This document shows positions 7,296 through 24,385 of a DNA stretch of 26,720 nt, piece after piece. Each line of letters opens with the position of its first letter. Position 1 is the first letter of the stretch. The stretch lies in the IMG/VR virus record IMGVR_UViG_2734482772_000016, positions 1 through 26,720 of that record; one strand, given 5' to 3'. The stretch is from a virus. Lineage: Duplodnaviria; Heunggongvirae; Uroviricota; Caudoviricetes. Position numbers and translations under genes: made by a program. The notes below the pieces were generated by a model that ran no database searches, was not told where the DNA came from, and saw nothing but the letters and a program-made list of their open reading frames with translations.

Positions 7296-7843
7296 GCAGC
7301 GGTAAACTGGATATTAAGATTGATTTAAGCGCGTATAACACCACGCTGGGGAAACTGATTCGTTCCGTGAAGGACCGGCGCGACCTGATGACGGCGCTTG
7401 CAGGCTCCATGCTGGATGCGGTTGAGACTAACTTTGAACAACAGGGTCGCCCGAAATGGATGGGCTGGAGTCCGGCCTATGCGAAACGGCGCGGCCCCGG
7501 GCAAATCCTTCAGAAGTCCGGACGACTGGCTGCCAGTATCCGCTCTGCGGTTAACAATAACGAGGCCACGGTCGGGACAAACGTCCGTTATGCCCGTATC
7601 CACAACGAAGGCGGCGAGATCCGCCATCAGGCACGGACGCAGAACCTGTATTTTAAACAGTACAAAAACGGCAGCGTCAGCAGCCGTTTTGTGAAAAAGC
7701 GCAACAGTAATTTTGTGCAGAGCGCAACGGTCGGAGCGTATACGGTCAACATGCCAGCGCGCCCCTTCCTTCAGCTCGTGCAGGACGACATCGACGAGCT
7801 GGAGAACACCGCAAACCGCTATTTTGCGCGTGTGATTGACTGA
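7292..7843 (+). CDS. virion morphogenesis protein (Mu G-like)
   Basis: 183 aa, ATGA overlap with the F-like gene; Mu G position. Confidence 0.7.
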   Translation: MSSGKLDIKIDLSAYNTTLGKLIRSVKDRRDLMTALAGSMLDAVETNFEQQGRPKWMGWSPAYAKRRGPGQILQKSGRLAASIRSAVNNNEATVGTNVRYARIHNEGGEIRHQARTQNLYFKQYKNGSVSSRFVKKRNSNFVQSATVGAYTVNMPARPFLQLVQDDIDELENTANRYFARVID

Positions 7844-7998
7844 ATGGCGACAAACGCGCTGTAATCGGCTGTGACAGCATAAACGCTTCATGGATGAGGC
7901 ATAACAGCACCGCATCCCATAAATGCCGTCAGAATCGTTTTTAAAAGGGTTTTAAAAACGGTTTTATTTCCCCTTTTATCCTTTCGCGTTATGGCAGG

Positions 7999-8013
7999 GT
8001 GCTGAACACCCTC
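7999..8013 (+). promoter_or_regulatory. copy A of a repeated 15-bp motif GTGCTGAACACCCTC; candidate late-promoter or activator-binding element
   Basis: Exact 15-mer also present at 19915..19929; both lie in the only real intergenic gaps of the late region, 31 to 39 bp upstream of a start codon; contains the imperfect dyad GTGcTgaaCAC. Confidence 0.35.
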
Positions 8014-8043
8014 CACAGTACCCCGGCTTCCCCTTCCGTCATC

Positions 8044-9168
8044 ATGCCGCGTATGAAACTGAAAATTGCGGCGTTAAGCCTCGAAATTACTAAAGCAACC
8101 CACAGCGAAATCCAGCTGTTACCGGCAGGCGAGTTCAGCGCGGTGGATGGTCGCCCACATACCGATGAAGTCGAAAGCGGTAAATGGGTGCTGACTGCTG
8201 AACTGGCCGCGCAGCTTGTCGCACAGGTGGCCGCCCGCGCCACGCCTTTTGTCATTGATTACGAACATCAGACGCTGCGCGCCGTAAACAACGGCAAGCC
8301 CGCACCGGCGGCGGGCTGGTTCAGCCAGGTGGAATGGCGTGAAGGTTCGGGCCTGTATGCCATCGGTGTGGAGTGGACGGAGAACGCGGCGGCCATGATT
8401 GCCGCCGGTGAGTACAAATTTATTTCCCCGGTATTTGGATACAACCGGCGCGGCGAAGTCATCGAACTGTTACACGCCGCACTGACCAATACCCCGGCGC
8501 TGGACGGTATGGACGCGGTCATGCTGGCTGCGGCCAGCCGTCTGGCGAGTCTGTCAACTGAAACGGAGACCACAACAGTGGATGAAGAACTGTTAAACGA
8601 TTTGCTGTCCAGTCTGCGCTGGATGCTTAACCTCCCGGTTACCTCAACGGCGGAAGATATCAAAAACGAGCTGCAAAAGGTCGTTGACATGATTTCGAAC
8701 GGTCAGGGAACGGCGGCGGCATCCGTCAGCCTGCTGGCCCTGCTGAATCAGAAAGACGAGCAAATCGCCAGCCTGTCAGCCAGTGCCTATGACCCGTCAA
8801 AACACATTTCCCTTGCTGCCTTCGAAGAACTTCAGGGGCGTTATGCCGCACTGGCGCAACAGTCCGGTGAGGCCGAAGCCGGGGCACTGATTCAGGCGGC
8901 GCTGTCTGACGGGCGACTGCTTCCGGCACAGGAAGGCTGGGCGAAAGATTACGCCAGCCGCGATATCAACGGCTTTAAGTCCTGGCTGGATAACGCACCG
9001 AAACTTGTTGCGCTCAGTCAGACCCAGACCGGCGGCAAACCACCCAAAACGCCGTCGCCTGCCCCGGCGCAGATTAAAACCGGCGATGACGTCGATGTTG
9101 ATATCGCCATTTGTTCAATGATGGGCGTCGATCCAGAGGATGTCGCCCGTTACGCAGGAGATGAGTAA
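8044..9168 (+). CDS. head maturation protease/scaffold protein (Mu I-like)
   Basis: About 375 aa with an N-terminal protease-like region and a C-terminal Ala/Gln-rich helical scaffold-like region; start set at ATG 8044 (MPRMKLKI) because the longest ORF begins at a GTG inside the repeated motif. Confidence 0.75.
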   Translation: MPRMKLKIAALSLEITKATHSEIQLLPAGEFSAVDGRPHTDEVESGKWVLTAELAAQLVAQVAARATPFVIDYEHQTLRAVNNGKPAPAAGWFSQVEWREGSGLYAIGVEWTENAAAMIAAGEYKFISPVFGYNRRGEVIELLHAALTNTPALDGMDAVMLAAASRLASLSTETETTTVDEELLNDLLSSLRWMLNLPVTSTAEDIKNELQKVVDMISNGQGTAAASVSLLALLNQKDEQIASLSASAYDPSKHISLAAFEELQGRYAALAQQSGEAEAGALIQAALSDGRLLPAQEGWAKDYASRDINGFKSWLDNAPKLVALSQTQTGGKPPKTPSPAPAQIKTGDDVDVDIAICSMMGVDPEDVARYAGDE

Positions 9169-9564
9169 ATGGATCGCAATACCCCCTATCGTGACGGCGA
9201 ACTGAACCCGGTGCCGGTTGCCGCTGCGACCGAAATTTTTGGTGGTCATATGGTGGCCGTTAACGCATCCGGTTATGCCGTTCCGGCCAGTGCCACGGCC
9301 TCACAGATTACGCTGGGCGTGTCTGATGGCTGGGTGGATAACAGCAAGGGCAGTGATGGCGACGCCACCGTTCTAGTGCGTTGCGGCAAAGATTTTCTGA
9401 TGGTGAACAGCACCTCAGACCCGGTCACACAATCGCAGGTCGGCAAGCTGTGCTACGTGGAAGACAGCGTAACCGTGGCAAAAACCGACAACAGCAGCGC
9501 CCGTCCTGTCGCAGGGAAAGTGATCGGCATCTGTGGCGATGGCGTCTGGGTTCATTTCAGTTAA
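9169..9564 (+). CDS. hypothetical capsid-module protein (possibly a decoration or accessory head protein)
   Basis: 131 aa, start abuts the I-like stop (TAAATG), ends just before the major capsid ribosome-binding site; no motif recognised. Confidence 0.45.
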   Translation: MDRNTPYRDGELNPVPVAAATEIFGGHMVAVNASGYAVPASATASQITLGVSDGWVDNSKGSDGDATVLVRCGKDFLMVNSTSDPVTQSQVGKLCYVEDSVTVAKTDNSSARPVAGKVIGICGDGVWVHFS

Positions 9565-9574
9565 GGAGCAAAAC

Positions 9575-10483
9575 GTGTTAGTCAACGTTAAAAACGTCAA
9601 ACAGATTTTTATCAATCTGAAGGCCACCTTCCAGAAAGCCTTCGACCAGTCACCAACTGACTGGCAGAAGGTGGCAATGGAAGTGCCATCAAACGGCAAG
9701 GAAAATGACTACAGCTGGTTAAGTCGTTTCCCGAAAATGCGCGAGTGGATTGGTGACAAGGTCGTTAAATCACTGGCGGCATTTAACTACACCATCCGTA
9801 ACAAGGACTGGGAAGCCACGGTTGAAGTCGATCGTAACGACATCGAGGACGACCAGATTATGGGCTATGCCCTTCAGGCAAAAGGAGCCGGACAGTCGGC
9901 GGCAGAACTCCCGGCAGATATTGTGGCGTCCCTTATCAGTAACGGTTTTACCAATCCCTGTTACGACGGCCAGCCGTTCTTTGATACCGACCACCTGGTC
10001 GCCGGTAAATCGGTGTCCAACAAAGGCACCAAAAAACTCAAAGTTGGCTCGCTTGCCGAAGCGAAAGCCTCCTACGGTGCCGCCAGAACTGCCATGCGTA
10101 GTCTGAAAGATGACGAAGGCGCATCCCTTAAAATTCGCCCGAATCTGCTGGTTGTGCCACCGGCGCTGGAGGATGACGCGAACTACCTGATGACCGCCGA
10201 GAAGTTCCCGGACGGTACGCCGAACCCGTACCGCAATACCGCCGAAGTGCTGGTGATGCCGGAGCTGGCGTCGGATTCTGCGTGGTTCCTGTTTGACACC
10301 ACCAAACCGGTGAAACCGCTGATTTATCAGCTGCGTAAAAAGCCTGTTTTTGTGGAGCAGACGGACTACAACAGCGACAACGTGTTCAAGCGTAAGAAGT
10401 TCCTGTTTGGTGCCGAAGCGCGCTGTAACGGCGGTTACGGCTTCTGGCAGATGGCATTTGGTTCAGATGGTACGACGGAGTAA
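9575..10483 (+). CDS. major capsid protein (Mu T-like)
   Basis: Strong ribosome-binding site AAGGAG (9563..9568) six nt before GTG 9575; about 300 aa in the Mu T position. Confidence 0.8.
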   Translation: MLVNVKNVKQIFINLKATFQKAFDQSPTDWQKVAMEVPSNGKENDYSWLSRFPKMREWIGDKVVKSLAAFNYTIRNKDWEATVEVDRNDIEDDQIMGYALQAKGAGQSAAELPADIVASLISNGFTNPCYDGQPFFDTDHLVAGKSVSNKGTKKLKVGSLAEAKASYGAARTAMRSLKDDEGASLKIRPNLLVVPPALEDDANYLMTAEKFPDGTPNPYRNTAEVLVMPELASDSAWFLFDTTKPVKPLIYQLRKKPVFVEQTDYNSDNVFKRKKFLFGAEARCNGGYGFWQMAFGSDGTTE

Positions 10484-11254: not shown

Positions 11255-11889
11255 TTACTGAAATTGAACGGGCGCTGGTTGAACGTCTGCGTTGTGGTCT
11301 GGGGAAAATGGTGCGGGAAGTCCGCACCTATGCCGGTGAACTGGATGAAGACCCGGGCCGGATTGTTCGCAGCCTTCCGGCAGCCTGGGTGACGTTCGGC
11401 GGCATCGCGAAAACCGAACGCTATTCCACGTCACGCCAGAAATACATTGCCACCGGACGCTTTGTGGTTGTGGTGGGTGATTACAACACCCGCAGCGAAC
11501 AGAGCGCCAGACAGGGAGGCACCGTCCGGGATGAGGTCGGTACAAACCTGCTGGTTGAATCCGTCCGTCGCCTGCTGATCGGTCAGGATTTGGGGCTGGA
11601 GATTGATTATTTCGAACCCGGGCGGGTCAGGACGCTGTTTAACACTGGCGTGGCAGAGCGGGCAATGTCCGTGTTTGCCTGTGAGTTTGATACCCGCTGG
11701 GTGGAGCACGCGCTGGAAAACGGCAAATGGCCGGAGCGCGGTGCAGAAGCGGATATGGCTTTCAACCGTTACCACGGCCGTCTGTCAGACCCTGACCCGG
11801 ATTTACTGCGAATTGGTACGCAATACGGCGCAGATATCTGTGGTCTGGATGAATTAAGAGAGCAACAGCATGAACAAAATGAAGGTTAA
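11251..11889 (+). CDS. Mu gp37-like protein (DUF1834-type); probable non-AUG start (CTG 11251 or ATT 11254)
   Basis: The frame is open from 11230; the first ATG is at 11308, but 19 conserved-looking codons (LITEIERALVERLRCGLGK) and a GGGAGGTG ribosome-binding site (11239..11246) lie upstream and overlap the gp36-like stop. Confidence 0.55.
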   Translation: MITEIERALVERLRCGLGKMVREVRTYAGELDEDPGRIVRSLPAAWVTFGGIAKTERYSTSRQKYIATGRFVVVVGDYNTRSEQSARQGGTVRDEVGTNLLVESVRRLLIGQDLGLEIDYFEPGRVRTLFNTGVAERAMSVFACEFDTRWVEHALENGKWPERGAEADMAFNRYHGRLSDPDPDLLRIGTQYGADICGLDELREQQHEQNEG

Positions 11890-14298: not shown

Positions 14299-14457
14299 AT
14301 GACCATGAGCCGTCCCGAGCTGGACGGCTGGCTTGCCGCCGTTGACAGGCTGAACGGCGGCGGCTCAGGAAGAAAGGACACCTCACAGACCACCCGCCTG
14401 TCATTTAAATCCCTCAGAAAGAAACGCAGAAAAGGTAAACAGAAAAATGGCCGGTAA
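14299..14457 (+). CDS. possible -1 frame extension of the tail chaperone (or independent small basic ORF)
   Basis: The -1 frame relative to the chaperone is open from 14179 to 14457; it contains an ATG at 14299 and ends with a strongly basic tail (KSLRKKRRKGKQKNGR) overlapping the tape-measure start. Confidence 0.3.
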   Translation: MTMSRPELDGWLAAVDRLNGGGSGRKDTSQTTRLSFKSLRKKRRKGKQKNGR

Positions 14458-16720: not shown

Positions 16721-18069
16721 TGGGCTGGGCTGAAAACCTGCAAAACGCTTCCTTTCGTGGCGTGCAGTTTGAGGTGCTGAATACTGACGAACAAATCAGC
16801 CGCGACCATGCGGTCTATGAATACCCGTTTGTTGACGGGGCGGATTTGCACGACCTCGGACGCAAGGCGCGACCATTCCGCATGACGGCGTTCCTGTGGG
16901 GCGATGACTATGAATATAAACTCGGAAAACTGACCGCCGCCCTGGACGAAGGCGGCGATGGTGAACTGATTCATCCGGTTTATGGCTCTGTGCCGTCGGT
17001 GATTGTGACCGGCTACAGCATCCGCCATGACGCAGAAAGCCCGGACAGCTGCACCATTGACATGAGTTTTCTGGAAAACCGCACTGGTAGCGCGTTGTTC
17101 AGCACCCCGTTACCGGAGCTGTTCGCGCAACAGTTGTTTGATGAACTGGACACTTTACAGGCGCGGTTAAGTGATTTTTTTGATGCCGTTACTGCACCTT
17201 TAAATACCGTTAACAGCATGATTAAAAAAGCCCAGACAGTGCGTGCCACACTGGTGAATACCCTGCTGTCGTTCAAAAGTGATTTTGTCTCCACTGTCGA
17301 TAATATCGTGTCACTGGCAGGCGAACCCGGAAAATTTATCAATGAACTGGCAGAGGTGCTGGAAATCCACACATCAGATGTCGGGCAACCGGTGCCGGTT
17401 CTGCAACGTGTTGATTCTGCCACCCGGACCGGGTTGGCAGGAGAGACGACCGTCGCCAGTTCTGCGACAGTGATGAACTGCTGGAATAAGGTCATCACTG
17501 ATATGGATGAATTTGTTGCGCTGCCTGTTGCCCTGGTCAGTGGCGATAAAGTACCGGAGGTGGTACTTCCTGCGGATGCCTCGCCAGACGATGTGCAGGA
17601 TGTGAAAGCAGTTTACGCAACACAGGCCGCATCTGAACTGGCCAGTGTTGCAATGGCGATACTGGTTGATGATGCGCAGTCAGAACAGCTGATACCGGCG
17701 GATATCGGGCGACTGGTCGGAGATGTGCGCACCCGCTTACAGGCAGCCATCACGCTGTTCCGTGAACGCTATGAAGGCGAACGCGAACGGATAACCGAAA
17801 CCGCATCACCGCTGGGACTGATGTACCCGGAAATCATTCAGAGCATGAAAAACGTGGCGGCATCCGTGCAGGATGTCGGCCTGCTGGTTCTGTCACGCCG
17901 CCCACCGCTGACGCAGAAACAGGTGCAGGCGGACAGCTGTCTGCTGTTGCTGGCGTGGCAGTGGTACGGTGATTACAGCCGTGCGGCAGAGCTGCAACGT
18001 CTGAACCCGCAGTTGCGTGACCCGAACAACATAACCGCCGGGATGGTGATTAATGCCTACGCAAAATAA
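16720..18069 (+). CDS. Mu gp43/N-like tail protein (DNA circularisation protein N-terminal domain family)
   Basis: 449 aa, TGATG overlap with the tape-measure stop; Mu N position. Confidence 0.65.
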   Translation: MGWAENLQNASFRGVQFEVLNTDEQISRDHAVYEYPFVDGADLHDLGRKARPFRMTAFLWGDDYEYKLGKLTAALDEGGDGELIHPVYGSVPSVIVTGYSIRHDAESPDSCTIDMSFLENRTGSALFSTPLPELFAQQLFDELDTLQARLSDFFDAVTAPLNTVNSMIKKAQTVRATLVNTLLSFKSDFVSTVDNIVSLAGEPGKFINELAEVLEIHTSDVGQPVPVLQRVDSATRTGLAGETTVASSATVMNCWNKVITDMDEFVALPVALVSGDKVPEVVLPADASPDDVQDVKAVYATQAASELASVAMAILVDDAQSEQLIPADIGRLVGDVRTRLQAAITLFRERYEGERERITETASPLGLMYPEIIQSMKNVAASVQDVGLLVLSRRPPLTQKQVQADSCLLLLAWQWYGDYSRAAELQRLNPQLRDPNNITAGMVINAYAK

Positions 18070-19264
18070 CGACGACAAAATCAGCCTGGTCATTGCCGGA
18101 AGGTCGCATTCTGACTGGAGCAGTTATCGTATTGACAGCGATTTCCTGAAAGCTGCCGACGGCTGGCAGCTTCAGCTGGGGCTGCCTGAAAAGGTGTTCC
18201 CGGCGGATATCGTCCGGGGCGCACAAATCCGGTTGCAGGTGGGAGATGAAACGGTGCTCAGTGGGCGCATAGACAGCGTGCGCCGTAGTGTGTCCCGTCA
18301 GAGCTGCACGCTGGCCCTGTTCGGGCGTGATGATGCCGCCATCCTGGTGGACTGTGCCGCGCCGGTGTTCAGCGCCAACCAGCTGACGCTGGACGAGGTC
18401 ATCGACAGGATTGTCAGACCGCTGGGGATACAGCGCATCCGTATTCAGGCGTCCGGTGTGTCACGTAATGACAAGGTCGTTATAGAGCCGGGGATGCGTG
18501 CGTGGGATGCACTGGCCAAAGCTGCCGCCGGTCGCGGCTTATGGCCGTGGTTTGAGCCTGACGGGACGCTGGTTGTGGGTGGTCCAGACTACACTACCAC
18601 GCCGGTGGATACGCTGATTCTGAAGCTGGACGGCACCGGGAACAACGTGATGGAGCTGGACGATACCCGGTCCATTAACGGCTGTTTCTCCGAACTGACG
18701 GTGCTGGCCCAGAGCCACGCCCGCCGCGCAGACAGCAAGAAACAGGTGGCCGTGGTGCCGCTGGATATCTGGAACGAGGACGGCAGCGTGCGCACATTAT
18801 CCGGGCAGGACAGCGGTAATACGGACAGTGGTCAGACAGGCATTCATAACATGAAAGCCGTGGCCACCGACCCCACCGTGGATTATTACCGCCCGCAGAT
18901 TATCACCCAGGGCGACACCAGCAATCTGGAGCAGGTGAACTGGCGCGCAAAAAAAATGATGAGTGATGCCCGCCTGTCGGGGCTGGATATCGTCGCACTG
19001 GTTGCAGGTCATCGCACGGCAGATGGTGTTCTGTGGCAGCCCGGCCAGCGGGTGCGGATTGTCAGCGAACTCCACGGCATTGATGCCATCTTTTTCCTGA
19101 TGGGGCGTGAGTTCAGCGGAGGCCGGAACGGGCAGACAACCCGGCTTCGCTTTAAGGAGGACGGCGTGTGGATACCTGACGCCTTCCCGCGCGAGAAGAA
19201 ACGCCATCACCGCAGGGGCAAAAAGAAAAAAGAGGTCGCCATTGTTAAGGTCTGGGAGAAATGA
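18053..19264 (+). CDS. baseplate hub protein (Mu gp44/P-like, late control D-like)
   Basis: 403 aa overlapping the upstream gene by 17 nt; Mu P position. Confidence 0.7.
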   Translation: MPTQNNDDKISLVIAGRSHSDWSSYRIDSDFLKAADGWQLQLGLPEKVFPADIVRGAQIRLQVGDETVLSGRIDSVRRSVSRQSCTLALFGRDDAAILVDCAAPVFSANQLTLDEVIDRIVRPLGIQRIRIQASGVSRNDKVVIEPGMRAWDALAKAAAGRGLWPWFEPDGTLVVGGPDYTTTPVDTLILKLDGTGNNVMELDDTRSINGCFSELTVLAQSHARRADSKKQVAVVPLDIWNEDGSVRTLSGQDSGNTDSGQTGIHNMKAVATDPTVDYYRPQIITQGDTSNLEQVNWRAKKMMSDARLSGLDIVALVAGHRTADGVLWQPGQRVRIVSELHGIDAIFFLMGREFSGGRNGQTTRLRFKEDGVWIPDAFPREKKRHHRRGKKKKEVAIVKVWEK

Positions 19265-19914
19265 TGTGGGACAAGGTTAATCAGCGCATACAGCAGGCAC
19301 TGGCCGCCGTTCGCCAGGCATTCAGGGTGGTAACCGGTACGGTGGACAGTTCGACCAAAGTACAGCTACTTCAGCTGAACGGGCTGGCAGGCGAACAGCT
19401 GGACGGTGCGGAGTATTTTCAGCATTACGGCCTCACCACATCCCCGCCGCCCGGCTCGATGGGTATTGCCGTTCCGCTGAATGGTAATACCTCCCATACC
19501 GTCGTCGTGGCCACAGAGCACGGCGCATATCGCCTGACGGAACTGAAACCCGGCGAGGTGGCGCTGTATACCGACGAAGGCGCGAAAATCGTACTGAAGC
19601 GCGGGCGGGTTATTGAGCATGAATGTGATGTTTATCGCGTGAAATGCAAACGCTATGAGGTTGAGGCAGAGGAAAGCGCCGCATTCACAACACCGTTACT
19701 GACAGCCAGTGACAAGCTGACGGTGGAAGGCAAAATCACCGGCAACGGTGGCATGGCCATCAGTGGGGGCAAGGGATACACTGCCACCTTTGAAGGCAAT
19801 ATCAACCATGTGGGTGGAGTGATTACCTCCGTTGACGTCACCATTAATGGCGTTAAAATCGGAACGCATAAACACGATACCCCTCACGGCATATCTGGCC
19901 TGCCGCATAATTAA
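19261..19914 (+). CDS. baseplate central spike (Mu gp45-like, gpV-type)
   Basis: 217 aa with a C-terminal Gly-rich beta-helix-like region ending in a His-rich apex (GTHKHDTPHG), typical of metal-binding spike tips. Confidence 0.7.
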   Translation: MMWDKVNQRIQQALAAVRQAFRVVTGTVDSSTKVQLLQLNGLAGEQLDGAEYFQHYGLTTSPPPGSMGIAVPLNGNTSHTVVVATEHGAYRLTELKPGEVALYTDEGAKIVLKRGRVIEHECDVYRVKCKRYEVEAEESAAFTTPLLTASDKLTVEGKITGNGGMAISGGKGYTATFEGNINHVGGVITSVDVTINGVKIGTHKHDTPHGISGLPHN

Positions 19915-19929
19915 GTGCTGAACACCCTC
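19915..19929 (+). promoter_or_regulatory. copy B of the repeated 15-bp motif GTGCTGAACACCCTC
   Basis: Exact repeat of 7999..8013, one nt after the spike stop codon and 38 bp upstream of the gp46-like start. Confidence 0.35.
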
Positions 19930-19967
19930 ACCTGATTCTGACCTGTCCATGCTGCCAGACTGGCGGC

Positions 19968-20318
19968 ATGGACCAGACGATTTCACCTGCAACCGGCGAC
20001 TACGAACGCCGCCGGATTTATACACTCCATAACGCGGTTTATCTGCGACTGGCGACGCCGCTTGGCAGTTACTGGGCGGATGCGTCGCTGGGGTCACGCC
20101 TGCACGAGCTGAAGCGGGAAAAAGACGTTTCCCGTGTTCATAAGCTTGCGGCGCAGTATGCCAGCCAGGCACTTCAGCCCCTGCTCGATGACGGGCGGGC
20201 AAAATCCATTACCGTTGACACAAAACCGGGGCAGCGCGGCTGGTTGTTGCTGTTAATCACCGTCACGGATAACGCGGGCACACCGCAGACGTTTGAACAC
20301 CCTGTGAGGATTATGTAA
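19968..20318 (+). CDS. Mu gp46-like baseplate protein
   Basis: 116 aa, ATGTAATG junction with the downstream J-like gene; gp46 position. Confidence 0.65.
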   Translation: MDQTISPATGDYERRRIYTLHNAVYLRLATPLGSYWADASLGSRLHELKREKDVSRVHKLAAQYASQALQPLLDDGRAKSITVDTKPGQRGWLLLLITVTDNAGTPQTFEHPVRIM

Positions 20319-21400: not shown

Positions 21401-21973
21401 ATGAATACGGTTGATTTATTCCGTGCCATGTTACCGCCGGTCAGCTATGACCCGAACGGGAAATATATTTCAGCAGAACTGAACGCAGAAGCAGCCATTA
21501 TGGATGAAGTAAAAGCGTCAGCTGCACGAGTGCTCGCATCTGTCACACCATTTTACGCATCCATGACGCTGTCTGACTGGGAACGAGTGTATGGAGTAAT
21601 ACCCCGCGATGGTGCCACACAGCAGGAACGCCGAGAAAATATTCTTATAAAGATGGCTGCAACTGGTGGGTTATCTATCCCTTATTTTAAACAACTTGCA
21701 GCCAGCCTCGGGTACACCATAACAATTACTGAACTCCATCCATTCAGAACGGGGGTAAACCGATGTGGTGATCGTCTCTATATAACAGATGCCCGATGGA
21801 TTTGGCAGGTTAATGTCACAGGAAGCAAAACGCCAGCTTACAGATTCAGAACCGGAGTATCTGCAGCCGGGGAACCGTTACTTTCCTTTGGTGCCCCTGT
21901 ACTGGAAGAAACATTTAAAGACCTTAAACCCGCTTTTACTTATTGCCATTTCACATATAAGGAGGAGCAGTAA
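21401..21973 (+). CDS. Mu gp48-like tail protein (DUF2313-type)
   Basis: 190 aa between the J-like gene and the tail fibre; ribosome-binding site GAGAG before ATG 21401. Confidence 0.6.
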   Translation: MNTVDLFRAMLPPVSYDPNGKYISAELNAEAAIMDEVKASAARVLASVTPFYASMTLSDWERVYGVIPRDGATQQERRENILIKMAATGGLSIPYFKQLAASLGYTITITELHPFRTGVNRCGDRLYITDARWIWQVNVTGSKTPAYRFRTGVSAAGEPLLSFGAPVLEETFKDLKPAFTYCHFTYKEEQ

Positions 21974-22714: not shown

Positions 22715-23152
22715 ATGACATTTTTCTACAGTGCAGCACATAATATTTTTGTTTCAGATATTAACAAAGAGAGCTATGAGGATGCTGGATCGTGGCCAGC
22801 AGATGCAAAAGAAGTTTCAGATGAATTATTTTATCAATATTCGCAAAATCCACCGAAAGGCAAAATTCGCTCCCATGCAGATGGCCTGCCCATCTGGGAA
22901 GATGCCCCGCCTATGACTGAAGAAGAACTTATTCTGAAAAATAAGAATGAAAAACAAATTCGTATCGATGAAGCCAATAATTATATGCACGGTAAGCAAT
23001 GGCCAGGTAAAGCGGCTATTGGTCGTCTGAAAGGTGAGGAACTGGCGCAATATAATTTGTGGCTGGATTATCTGGACGCACTGGAGCTGGTCGATACTTC
23101 CGGTGCGCCAGATATTGAATGGCCTACGCCTCCGGCAGTTCAGGCCAGATGA
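22715..23152 (+). CDS. tail fibre assembly protein (Mu U-like)
   Basis: C-terminus DTSGAPDIEWPTPP is the characteristic tail-fibre-assembly ending; start is either ATG 22715 or ATG 22694. Confidence 0.65.
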   Translation: MTFFYSAAHNIFVSDINKESYEDAGSWPADAKEVSDELFYQYSQNPPKGKIRSHADGLPIWEDAPPMTEEELILKNKNEKQIRIDEANNYMHGKQWPGKAAIGRLKGEELAQYNLWLDYLDALELVDTSGAPDIEWPTPPAVQAR

Positions 23153-23726
23153 CATCCGGCGCGGTGCTGGTATCTGTTGCCGTCACCGCGTCAATGTAAT
23201 CCAGCACAGCGTTAAGTCGGGTGGTTTCTGCCTGCGTCAGCTTCCGCCCGGCCTGCAATTTCAGTTGAATCAGACTGATGGAAGCCATTGCAGCATCAAT
23301 CAGCGACTGGCGCTGTGCTTCTGCTGCGTCTACTGCGGCACTATGCTGTGCCTCAGTATCTGTCACCCATTTCTCACCATCCCATTTATCATATGGTGTT
23401 AACGGGGCAATAGTGGTTGTATTTTCAGGGTAATCACCCAGAGCTGTGATTTCTTTCGATTCTCCTGTTTCGGTGCTATAGATGATTTCACCGCGATGGT
23501 CTGCAACATATTCCCACCCGGTTGAATCTGCATTGCGGCAGATTGCAAAACCGTCCTTGTGCTCACCCGGTGCATCAGTGCTGGAATGCGCAGGGATACC
23601 AAAACCAGCAACAAGATACTCAACTGATAACGTCATGTATTCGCGCGTTTCTCCATCATAGTTGTAGACCGTTATCTGACCATCTGTTGTTGCATATCCG
23701 TTTTCGTCTAAAATCACCTGTTCCAT
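23124..23726 (-). CDS. alternative tail fibre assembly protein (U'-like), inverted orientation
   Basis: 200 aa on the - strand ending DTSTAPDVIWPELPEA; convergent with and overlapping the + strand assembly gene by 29 bp, as in the Mu G / P1 C segments. Confidence 0.65.
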   Translation of the reverse strand: MEQVILDENGYATTDGQITVYNYDGETREYMTLSVEYLVAGFGIPAHSSTDAPGEHKDGFAICRNADSTGWEYVADHRGEIIYSTETGESKEITALGDYPENTTTIAPLTPYDKWDGEKWVTDTEAQHSAAVDAAEAQRQSLIDAAMASISLIQLKLQAGRKLTQAETTRLNAVLDYIDAVTATDTSTAPDVIWPELPEA

Positions 23727-24263
23727 TTATGCGGTCCTCACAATGTAGTTAAACGCAATGTTTCTCGGTCGATTCTCCAGGGCCGTTGGAACCTGTGATG
23801 AAGCATCAAATGTAAACCCACCATTTTTATACCCGGATGTGTTTGATGCGGCTGTAAGTACAAAATTAGTGGTATCTCCAGCCGATGACTCACTCCATCC
23901 AAATACCCCAGTCATTTGCCTTGCTGTGTTTTGATTATATGAGTTGGATACTATGCGAACTGTTCCGGAGATATTTCTTATGGCATCTTCCTGGGCGCTC
24001 ATTAGCTTGCGCCCGCTATCTACACCTCGCCCATCATCCCAACCACGAATGAATTCACCCCGCAGGTCTGGAAGGACGCCGGATGGATAAACAGCAGCCA
24101 ACGCAGGTAGTAACGTTTTATTGAAAGATGAACCGTTGCACTTCATCCATCCTGTTGGTGGTGTAGCCAGTGGATATGGTACAGGTACACCAACGGGTAA
24201 CGCTGAGCCTTCTCCCAAACCAACGTTTATGAAAATGCAGAAATAACAAGCAAATGGCATCAT
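23727..24263 (-). CDS. alternative tail fibre C-terminal variable domain (S'-like), silent in the present orientation
   Basis: 178 aa on the - strand with a Ser/Thr/Asn/Gly-rich C-terminus; its 5' end runs across the candidate right crossover site, so it would be expressed only as a fusion after inversion. Confidence 0.55.
   Translation of the reverse strand: MMPFACYFCIFINVGLGEGSALPVGVPVPYPLATPPTGWMKCNGSSFNKTLLPALAAVYPSGVLPDLRGEFIRGWDDGRGVDSGRKLMSAQEDAIRNISGTVRIVSNSYNQNTARQMTGVFGWSESSAGDTTNFVLTAASNTSGYKNGGFTFDASSQVPTALENRPRNIAFNYIVRTA
24211..24238 (+). repeat. candidate right crossover site (gix/hix-like), inverted relative to 22254..22278
   Basis: Reverse complement reads TTTTCATAAACG-TT-GGTTTGGGAGAA; right half GGTTTG and the core resemble the hix/gix consensus; 12 of 19 positions match the left site in the alignment I made. 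Confidence 0.35.
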
Positions 24264-24289
24264 TCCTGCTTTTGTCAGGGTGATCTACT

Positions 24290-24385
24290 ATGTTTATAGG
24301 CTATGTACGCGCATCAACAAATGACCAGGACACCGATTTACAACGCAATGCGTTGAGCTGTGCAGGATATGAGCTGATTTTTTGA
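24290..24385 (+). pseudogene. truncated serine DNA invertase (Gin/Pin/Hin family) N-terminal remnant
   Basis: MFIGYVRASTNDQDTDLQRNALSCAGYELIF, then a stop: close to the Gin/Pin N-terminus (xLIGYVRVSTNDQxTxLQRNAL, catalytic Ser retained). Removing one T from the T6 run at 24378..24383 gives FEGKSSA, resembling Gin FEDKLSG, then another stop. No sequence encoding the conserved WKLDRLGRS or helix-turn-helix region follows. Confidence 0.6.

Follow-up and report, generated by a model that had tools for sequence, protein, structure and literature searches.

Putative activator boxes at the late promoters of a Mu-like Escherichia coli prophage and predicted leaderless starts of gene I and gp46

Late transcription of phage Mu proceeds from promoters located before the lysis genes, gene I and the baseplate/tail genes (PMC4461284). 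The Mu C site is a 16-bp imperfect dyad centred at -43.5, and the promoters have a recognisable -10 element and no typical -35 element (PMC2582627). The Mu middle promoter Pm is activated by Mor, which belongs to the same protein family as C; Pm likewise has its dyad box before the -35 region and is transcribed by sigma-70 RNA polymerase (PMC2582627; bioRxiv 10.1101/2025.05.02.651988). Pm drives the C operon, whereas the promoters predicted in the present work would drive structural (late) genes and, as with the C-dependent late promoters of Mu, would be served by one phage-encoded activator of the Mor/C family. The cI transcript made from PRM of lambda is a leaderless mRNA of an E. coli phage, and at Mu mom a hairpin sequesters the start of the gene and is opened by Com.

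The late regulon of an uncharacterised Mu-like prophage is predicted here to consist of three promoters together with one activator. Mu late promoters are a known kind; the box, the branch of the Mor/C family and the prophage family considered here are undescribed in the literature searched. In that literature, the coverage of which is incomplete, neither the box nor leaderless late mRNAs of Mu-like phages were found to have been described. If confirmed, the leaderless late mRNAs predicted here could represent a variant of the Mu late promoters.

The prophage and its repeated 15-mer

The window, by which we mean the whole stretch of 26,720 nucleotides that was analysed, belongs to a Mu-like prophage that is annotated between yfcC and pta in strain 160-11H1 (L001; L001 position = window position x + 12301). 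The gene order in L001 is repressor, Mu transposase, AAA ATPase, GemA-like gene and one gene of the 'Mor transcription activator family', followed by the lysis, head, tail and baseplate genes. Window position 1 corresponds to the first holin gene, and the activator gene and the activator–holin spacer lie outside the window. The G-I region was matched in 55 of 5426 complete E. coli genomes (~1%) at 90–100% identity, three of them at 100%; EPEC E2348/69 is among the E. coli genomes with the prophage. At the DNA level the G-I region matched no isolated phage, relatives being found at the protein level only, and an Rfam search of the whole window gave no match either.

A preliminary description of the window had reported an identical 15-mer in two intergenic gaps, and both copies were confirmed; the rest of the window holds only sites with at least three mismatches to GTGCTGAACACCCTC, three being the number found in the next-best matches. 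The two copies and the genes that follow them are:

7999–8013, + strand: 15-mer copy A, GTGCTGAACACCCTC, exact match
8053–9168, + strand: protease/scaffold gene, homologue of Mu I (Pfam Mu-like_Pro, 330 bits)
19915–19929, + strand: 15-mer copy B, GTGCTGAACACCCTC, exact match, beginning immediately downstream of the TAA that ends the gp45/V-like gene
19968–20318, + strand: gp46 (baseplate wedge) gene (Pfam GP46)

Copy A is contained in the 209 bp that separate the G-like from the I-like gene (7844–8052) and copy B in a gap of 53 bp (19915–19967). Both gaps are real, but they are not the only sizeable ones, as had been stated, because a further 53-bp gap (11255–11307) occurs, from which the box is absent. 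The distance from the 15-mer to the start codon had been given as 31 to 39 bp; with the protease start annotated in RefSeq (8053, not 8044), the end of the 15-mer precedes the ATG by 39 nt at the protease gene and by 38 nt at gp46 (19968), a near-identical spacing. The N-terminus of the protease is kept from residue 1 on in relatives. Extending the motif search to the early region and the lysis promoter, which are missing from the window, revealed a third copy with one mismatch, GTGCTGAACACCCCC, at L001 12141–12155, ~160 bp before window position 1. It lies between the activator operon and the holin gene, 147 bp upstream of holin, and the host flanks of L001 contain no additional copies.

The length of the repeat is by itself not beyond chance. 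The window contains a second exact 15-mer pair, GCTGGATATCGTCGC (1676–1690 and 18982–18996), with both members inside genes, as well as three exact 14-mer pairs, all coding. Among the first 120 exact matches of the 15-mer in IMG/VR, 96 fell in unrelated coding contexts, and the matches outside the relatives were mostly coding, in unrelated contexts and at approximately the rate expected by chance; as exact-pattern scans of IMG/VR with 14- and 15-mers return mostly chance matches, only contigs with several matches are informative. The significance of the 15-mer therefore stems from its location, the third copy and its conservation in relatives. Although these other pairs and coding matches are what a functionless repeat would look like, the comparative data refute a chance origin, as the copies are intergenic, a third copy exists and the box is kept at three positions across genera while the flanks diverge; we consider the probability of mere coincidence to be negligible.

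Activator box and promoter anatomy

The 15-mer overlaps by 13 bp with a 16-bp box, an imperfect dyad with the consensus GCTGA-N6-TCAGC, and we consider it likely that the 15-mer is part of a putative activator box of the late promoters. The predicted elements of the gene I promoter (P_I) and the gp46 promoter (P_46) are:

8001–8016, + strand: P_I box, GCTGA-ACACCC-TCCAC, predicted centre at -43.5/-44.5, among the top three weight-matrix matches
8017–8024, + strand: -35 region of P_I, AGTACCCC, shared with the lysis copy (CAGTACCC) and containing no TTGACA-like hexamer
8040–8045, + strand: -10-like hexamer of P_I, CATCAT (A at position 2, T at position 6), box positions 40–45
19917–19932, + strand: P_46 box, GCTGA-ACACCC-TCACC, rank 2 among the weight-matrix matches, kept before gp46 in diverged relatives
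19956–19961, + strand: -10-like hexamer of P_46, CAGACT, box positions 40–45

The conserved dyad differs from the one first proposed (GTGcTgaaCAC, extended in copy A to AGGGTG...CACCCT), the arms of which are offset by 4.5 bp; the left arm of that dyad is absent in relatives (e.g. ctaccGCTGAACCCCC), and box position 8, within its right arm, varies between A, C and T. The same letters would give the transcript a stem-loop, AGGGUG-CUGAA-CACCCU, that could act as a terminator, a stabiliser or a protein-binding hairpin. The 6-bp stem of copy A does fold (-12.5 kcal/mol, z = -2.2), and so does the longer stem of the lysis copy (-20.6 kcal/mol, z = -4.5), in which one stem pair is changed from G:C to A:T. 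However, copy B remains unfolded with the same 15-mer (-0.9 kcal/mol), the left arm of the stem is missing in all diverged relatives that keep the box, and GCTGAACTCCC, found in the lysis copy of about half of the close relatives, introduces a U.U mismatch into the stem. Moreover, no T-run follows the 15-mer, a terminator scan of the + strand found none, and the stem-loop has no match in Rfam. The fold itself thus stands for copy A, but the stem is not conserved, and a role as an RNA element is extremely improbable compared with the reading as an activator box.

To describe the promoters as a group, we stacked 29 of them in an ungapped alignment anchored at the first G of the box; 12 belong to gene I, 12 to the lysis genes and 5 to gp46. 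The information content is high at positions 1–16, and positions 17–23 are moderately conserved. The hexamer at positions 40–45 has A41 and T45 in 27 of the 29 promoters, and further downstream C51 (24/29) is followed by A52 (18/29). The first base of the box and that of the hexamer (-A---T) are 39 bp apart, as at Mu Pmom, which places the centre of the box at -43.5 from the expected start, as predicted by this spacing. The -10-like hexamer of the lysis promoter is TACCCT, and relatives have CACACT, TAGTAT, CAGTAT or GACAAT at the position of the P_46 hexamer. Two features speak against the reading as activator-dependent promoters: the -10-like hexamers of P_I and P_46 are weak, and none of the three prophage copies has a perfect right arm (TCCAC, TCACC and CCAGC vs TCAGC). 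A -35 element is absent, as in the C-dependent promoters of Mu: box positions 17–22 match TTGACA at 1–2 of 6 positions, and a sigma-70 scan (including 7800–8150) found no -35/-10 pair at copy A or B. A sigma-70 match at 19832–19859 (TTGACG, 16 nt, TAAAAT; 10/12), which lies in the gp45/V-like coding region ~55 bp upstream of copy B, may have arisen by chance, as 0.3 such matches are expected per region.

A position weight matrix (PWM) built from the boxes of relatives only, with the prophage's own sites excluded, was applied to both strands of the 40.6-kb prophage locus. It ranked the three prophage sites first to third, with 19.9, 18.7 and 17.9 bits, and the next match scored 12.7 bits. Mononucleotide shuffles of the locus yielded a best score of 20.4 bits once in 30 trials, indicating that a single PWM site is not decisive alone. 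The fourth match (window ~13766, 12.7 bits) is intragenic, does not have the hexamer/ATG geometry and was taken as a chance match. We also rejected as a third site the 10-mer TGAACACCCT, which had been suggested as a related motif near the baseplate J-like start. It occurs exactly at 20294–20303, where its codons encode F-E-H-P-V at the gp46 C-terminus (FKHxV in relatives), the GC that is invariant in the left arm is missing from it, and it lies outside the top 15 PWM matches, all of which points to a coding coincidence.

The resemblance to Mu is thus one of architecture. A 16-bp dyad at -43.5 from the predicted start, a -10 without a -35 element, several copies heading the lysis, head and tail operons, and a Mor/C-family activator encoded in the same phage upstream of the lysis genes are all found in the prophage. 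The lysis and I promoters have extra box-adjacent bases in common, CAGTACCC here and a 10-bp lys/I match in Mu. The box itself, GCTGA-N6-TCAGC, is unrelated in sequence to the Mu box (TTAT-N6-ATAA/ATAACCCC), and no similarity to the Mu C boxes TTATgccccaATAA and ATAACCCCAG was found, suggesting a different specificity within the same architecture. The tail promoter precedes gp46 here and P/gp44 in Mu. No mom promoter was found in the prophage, and the PP box of Mu could not be located by eye in Mu 27480–27720. The preliminary description had proposed that the two copies are equivalent to the late promoter sites before the Mu head and tail genes, a proposal now supported by the box, by the fixed spacing of the hexamer and by the co-occurrence with a Mor/C gene at three Mu-like positions.

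The activator and conservation of the box in relatives

The activator gene (L001 11331–11798, 155 aa) is located ~0.5–1 kb upstream of the window start. Its product matches Pfam Mor (PF08765) with 28.5 bits, just above the cut-off of 24.9. In the PDB, the best match of the profile of its family is the Mu 'Late transcription activator C' (9l0x, E = 9e-4), compared to E = 0.77 for Mor. The protein is 28% identical to Mu C and 20% to Mor and carries an insertion of ~19 aa relative to C. No Mor/C signal was obtained for the hypothetical ORF in Mor's position (L001 10893–11228), and the E. coli prophage contains only one recognisable Mor/C gene. The region upstream of the activator gene (L001 11240–11330) has a terminator-like hairpin and a near-consensus promoter, TGTACAgg.GATCA...TATAAT, that contains GATC; this promoter with its GATC is conserved between the E. 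coli and Edwardsiella lineages.

Among close relatives in IMG/VR, with activators 92–100% identical, the box is kept at the lysis and I positions with few variable sites, the lysis copy reading GCTGAACTCCC in about half of them. More diverged activator homologues (36–81% identity) were collected with their loci from reference genomes of Trabulsiella, Xenorhabdus, Photorhabdus, Intestinirhabdus, Buttiauxella, Morganella, Serratia and Lonepinella. In each of these taxa, the box is present after the activator gene and in the G-I gap, as GCTGAAC-CCC(C/T)TCA(G/A)C or a lineage variant, while the non-coding flanks have diverged; among the first seven, the activators are only 36–55% identical, yet the box is kept. 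At the P_I position, 12 lineages retain it, as do 62 of the 67 distinct upstream sequences in IMG/VR. Contigs with several matches to GCTGAACCCCCTCA are all Mu-like and have the same box between gp45 and gp46, with gp46 proteins 57–72% identical to that of the window.

In two phages, the box is different. Klebsiella phage ST405-OXA48phi1.1 (activator 41% identical) has the variant ACTGAAGCCCnTCAAC at the same three positions, and Haemophilus phage SuMu (activator 33% identical) has the dyad GTGGAAG..CTTCC, again at the same three positions. These variants indicate that the box drifts as the activator diverges, the series being GCTGAAC, ACTGAAG, GACGAAC, GCTGAAT and, in SuMu, GTGGAAG..CTTCC. 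Such natural box/activator pairs of graded specificity could be of use in studies of Mor/C recognition or as orthogonal switches. The SuMu dyads are found at 1040–1100, 9470–9530 and 21465–21520 (L359).

The drift also bears on whether a host factor, e.g. a protein of the CRP family, binds the box instead of the phage activator. With arms of 5 bp around a 6-bp spacer, the box has TGA...TCA in common with TGTGA-N6-TCACA, the consensus of CRP. However, its left arm has C where CRP needs G, and a centre at -43.5 corresponds neither to the class I nor to the class II position of CRP. Phages of hosts with essentially the same CRP have different boxes (GCTGAAC in E. coli vs ACTGAAG in the Klebsiella phage), the box changes with the divergence of the activator, and its occurrence is limited to the starts of late operons in phages with a Mor/C homologue. 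Binding by a host factor is therefore very unlikely, and we return to the phage activator as the probable ligand.

A conserved block within the G-I gap, cgtttttaaaagggttttaaaaacggtttta (window 7930–7970), is kept in all relatives examined and resembles the Mu sequence at the position annotated 'gyrase cut site' (the strong gyrase site, Mu 17879–17880). It is probably the equivalent of the Mu strong gyrase site, located ~40 bp upstream of the promoter box. Its presence means that the gap has DNA functions other than that of a promoter, and the box might accordingly be the site of another phage DNA-binding protein, acting as a repressor operator or in packaging, transposition or nucleoid organisation. 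The gyrase-site-like sequence is, however, a separate block, and the fixed 39-bp spacing from the box to the -A---T hexamer and the start codon is expected of a promoter element, not of a structural DNA site. In addition, all three copies are intergenic and have the same orientation (+ strand), upstream of operon-first genes. We consider a site of this other kind unlikely and retain the reading as an activator box.

The observed features are a conserved sequence, a constant spacing, an activator gene found along with the box and the lack of a Shine-Dalgarno sequence; from them we infer that the activator binds the box, that the promoters depend on it and where transcription starts. The late activator of the Mor/C family encoded by the prophage itself would bind the 16-bp box, and after induction the activator dimer on the box would recruit or activate sigma-70 RNA polymerase and thereby turn on the late genes. 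Three promoters are predicted to depend on it, one before the lysis genes, one before the protease/scaffold gene I (copy A) and one before the baseplate gene gp46 (copy B).

The relatives in Xenorhabdus, Photorhabdus and Morganella have two tandem Mor/C paralogues (L025, L026, L030 and L031 at ~9900–10000; L071, L112). In these two-paralogue relatives, a related box, ACTGAACCCCTTCAAC, with the hexamer at the same spacing, precedes the gene for the late activator, suggesting a cascade from Mor to C like that of Mu.

Predicted leaderless starts and the hairpin at the gp46 start

The spacing rule places the predicted starts of P_I and P_46 at the start codons. The distance from the hexamer to the ATG is 7 nt for gene I and 6 nt for gp46, and the A of the gp46 ATG lies exactly 43.5 bp from the centre of the box. 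Among distinct upstream sequences from IMG/VR, the ATG occupies box positions 52–54 in 62 of 67 for P_I and in 37 of 54 for P_46. Gene I and gp46 also have the weakest and second weakest pairing with the anti-Shine-Dalgarno sequence among 30 late genes (+1.2 and -1.5 kcal/mol, respectively), whereas most other late genes reach about -4 to -12 kcal/mol. The lysis promoter, by contrast, has a predicted leader of ~108 nt, and GGAGA precedes the holin start. Applied to Mu, the same spacing rule would put the PI start ~26 nt before the I start codon, which itself follows a purine-rich, Shine-Dalgarno-like stretch, compared to a predicted leader of 0–1 nt here.

Considering the ATG at the predicted start together with the weakest anti-Shine-Dalgarno pairing, we somewhat favour the prediction that the starts of gene I and gp46 are leaderless. 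Transcription from copies A and B would begin at the A of the ATG or no more than 1 nt from it, and both genes would be translated from leaderless mRNAs. This would be similar to lambda cI in that the predicted transcript begins at the A of the AUG and has no Shine-Dalgarno sequence; unlike lambda cI, the genes concerned are the first genes of late structural operons, and the geometry, predicted from sequence, is kept throughout a broad phage family. Two points argue in the opposite direction. Leaderless mRNAs are generally translated weakly in E. coli, and while the start codon of gene I and gp46 is ATG in almost all relatives, gp46 of the Klebsiella phage is an exception with GTG, which is a counter-indication to leaderless translation. 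In SuMu, the sequence before gp46 is TATCCT, 6 nt, ATG, the same leaderless geometry. For Mu-like prophages of Enterobacterales and beyond, the arrangement can be put as an annotation rule: box, 39 bp, -A---T hexamer, 6–7 nt, ATG.

At gp46, the start codon is also part of an RNA secondary structure:

19945–19973, + strand: RNA hairpin, GUCCAUGCUGCCA-GAC-UGGCGGCAUGGAC, 13 bp, -24.9 kcal/mol, z = -6.3

The -10 hexamer lies at the apex of this hairpin and the AUG in its 3' arm. To assess covariation, 24 diverged sequences were aligned without gaps; 91.7% of the cells are paired and 7 of 11 pairs are altered on both sides, values reached by none of 500 shuffles, and controls in which the position was slid pair at 31–39%. 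Internal mismatches comprise 15 G.U and 1 A.C, suggesting that the structure is formed by the sense-strand RNA and not by DNA. In the Klebsiella phage, the GUG start codon is accompanied by a matching change from CAU to CAC in the 5' arm. The hairpin is widespread in Mu-like contigs, and an analogous one is present in ~15 of 37 gene I lineages (~40%), P_I of the window being without one.

Because the 5' arm is upstream of the predicted start, the hairpin can be formed only by read-through transcripts, i.e. those starting upstream of 19945. The arrangement resembles Mu mom in having a conserved RNA hairpin over a start codon in a Mu-type late region, and it differs in that there is no Com homologue or Com site here and in that the -10 element occupies the loop, making the hairpin impossible in the promoter's own transcripts. 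Our best guess is that, in read-through transcripts, the hairpin keeps the start codon silent or serves to stabilise or process the RNA. A more general proposal, which we regard as tentative and rather doubtful, is that in a large Mu-like clade gp46, and in many lineages gene I as well, is leaderless with the -10 element in the loop of a conserved hairpin formed by read-through RNA only, the AUG being within or next to its 3' arm, such that the first gene would be translated solely from the transcript of its own promoter and silent in read-through RNA. If this were true, translation would depend on where the transcript began. The hairpin enclosing the promoter -10 and the leaderless geometry could, if confirmed, amount to a variant of the Mu late promoters and to an unusual control of late structural genes.

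Two minor observations concern other parts of the late region. At the right end, adjoining pta, window 23000–24300 (L001 35318–36578) carries frameshifted or partial tail-fibre-assembly and tail-fibre pseudogenes in the RefSeq annotation, and this copy of the prophage may be unable to make infectious particles. The small annotated ORF at 14299–14457, between the tail-chaperone-like and tape-measure genes, has almost no Shine-Dalgarno pairing (-1.0 kcal/mol) and may represent a frameshift extension, as is typical of tail chaperone genes, and not a gene in its own right.
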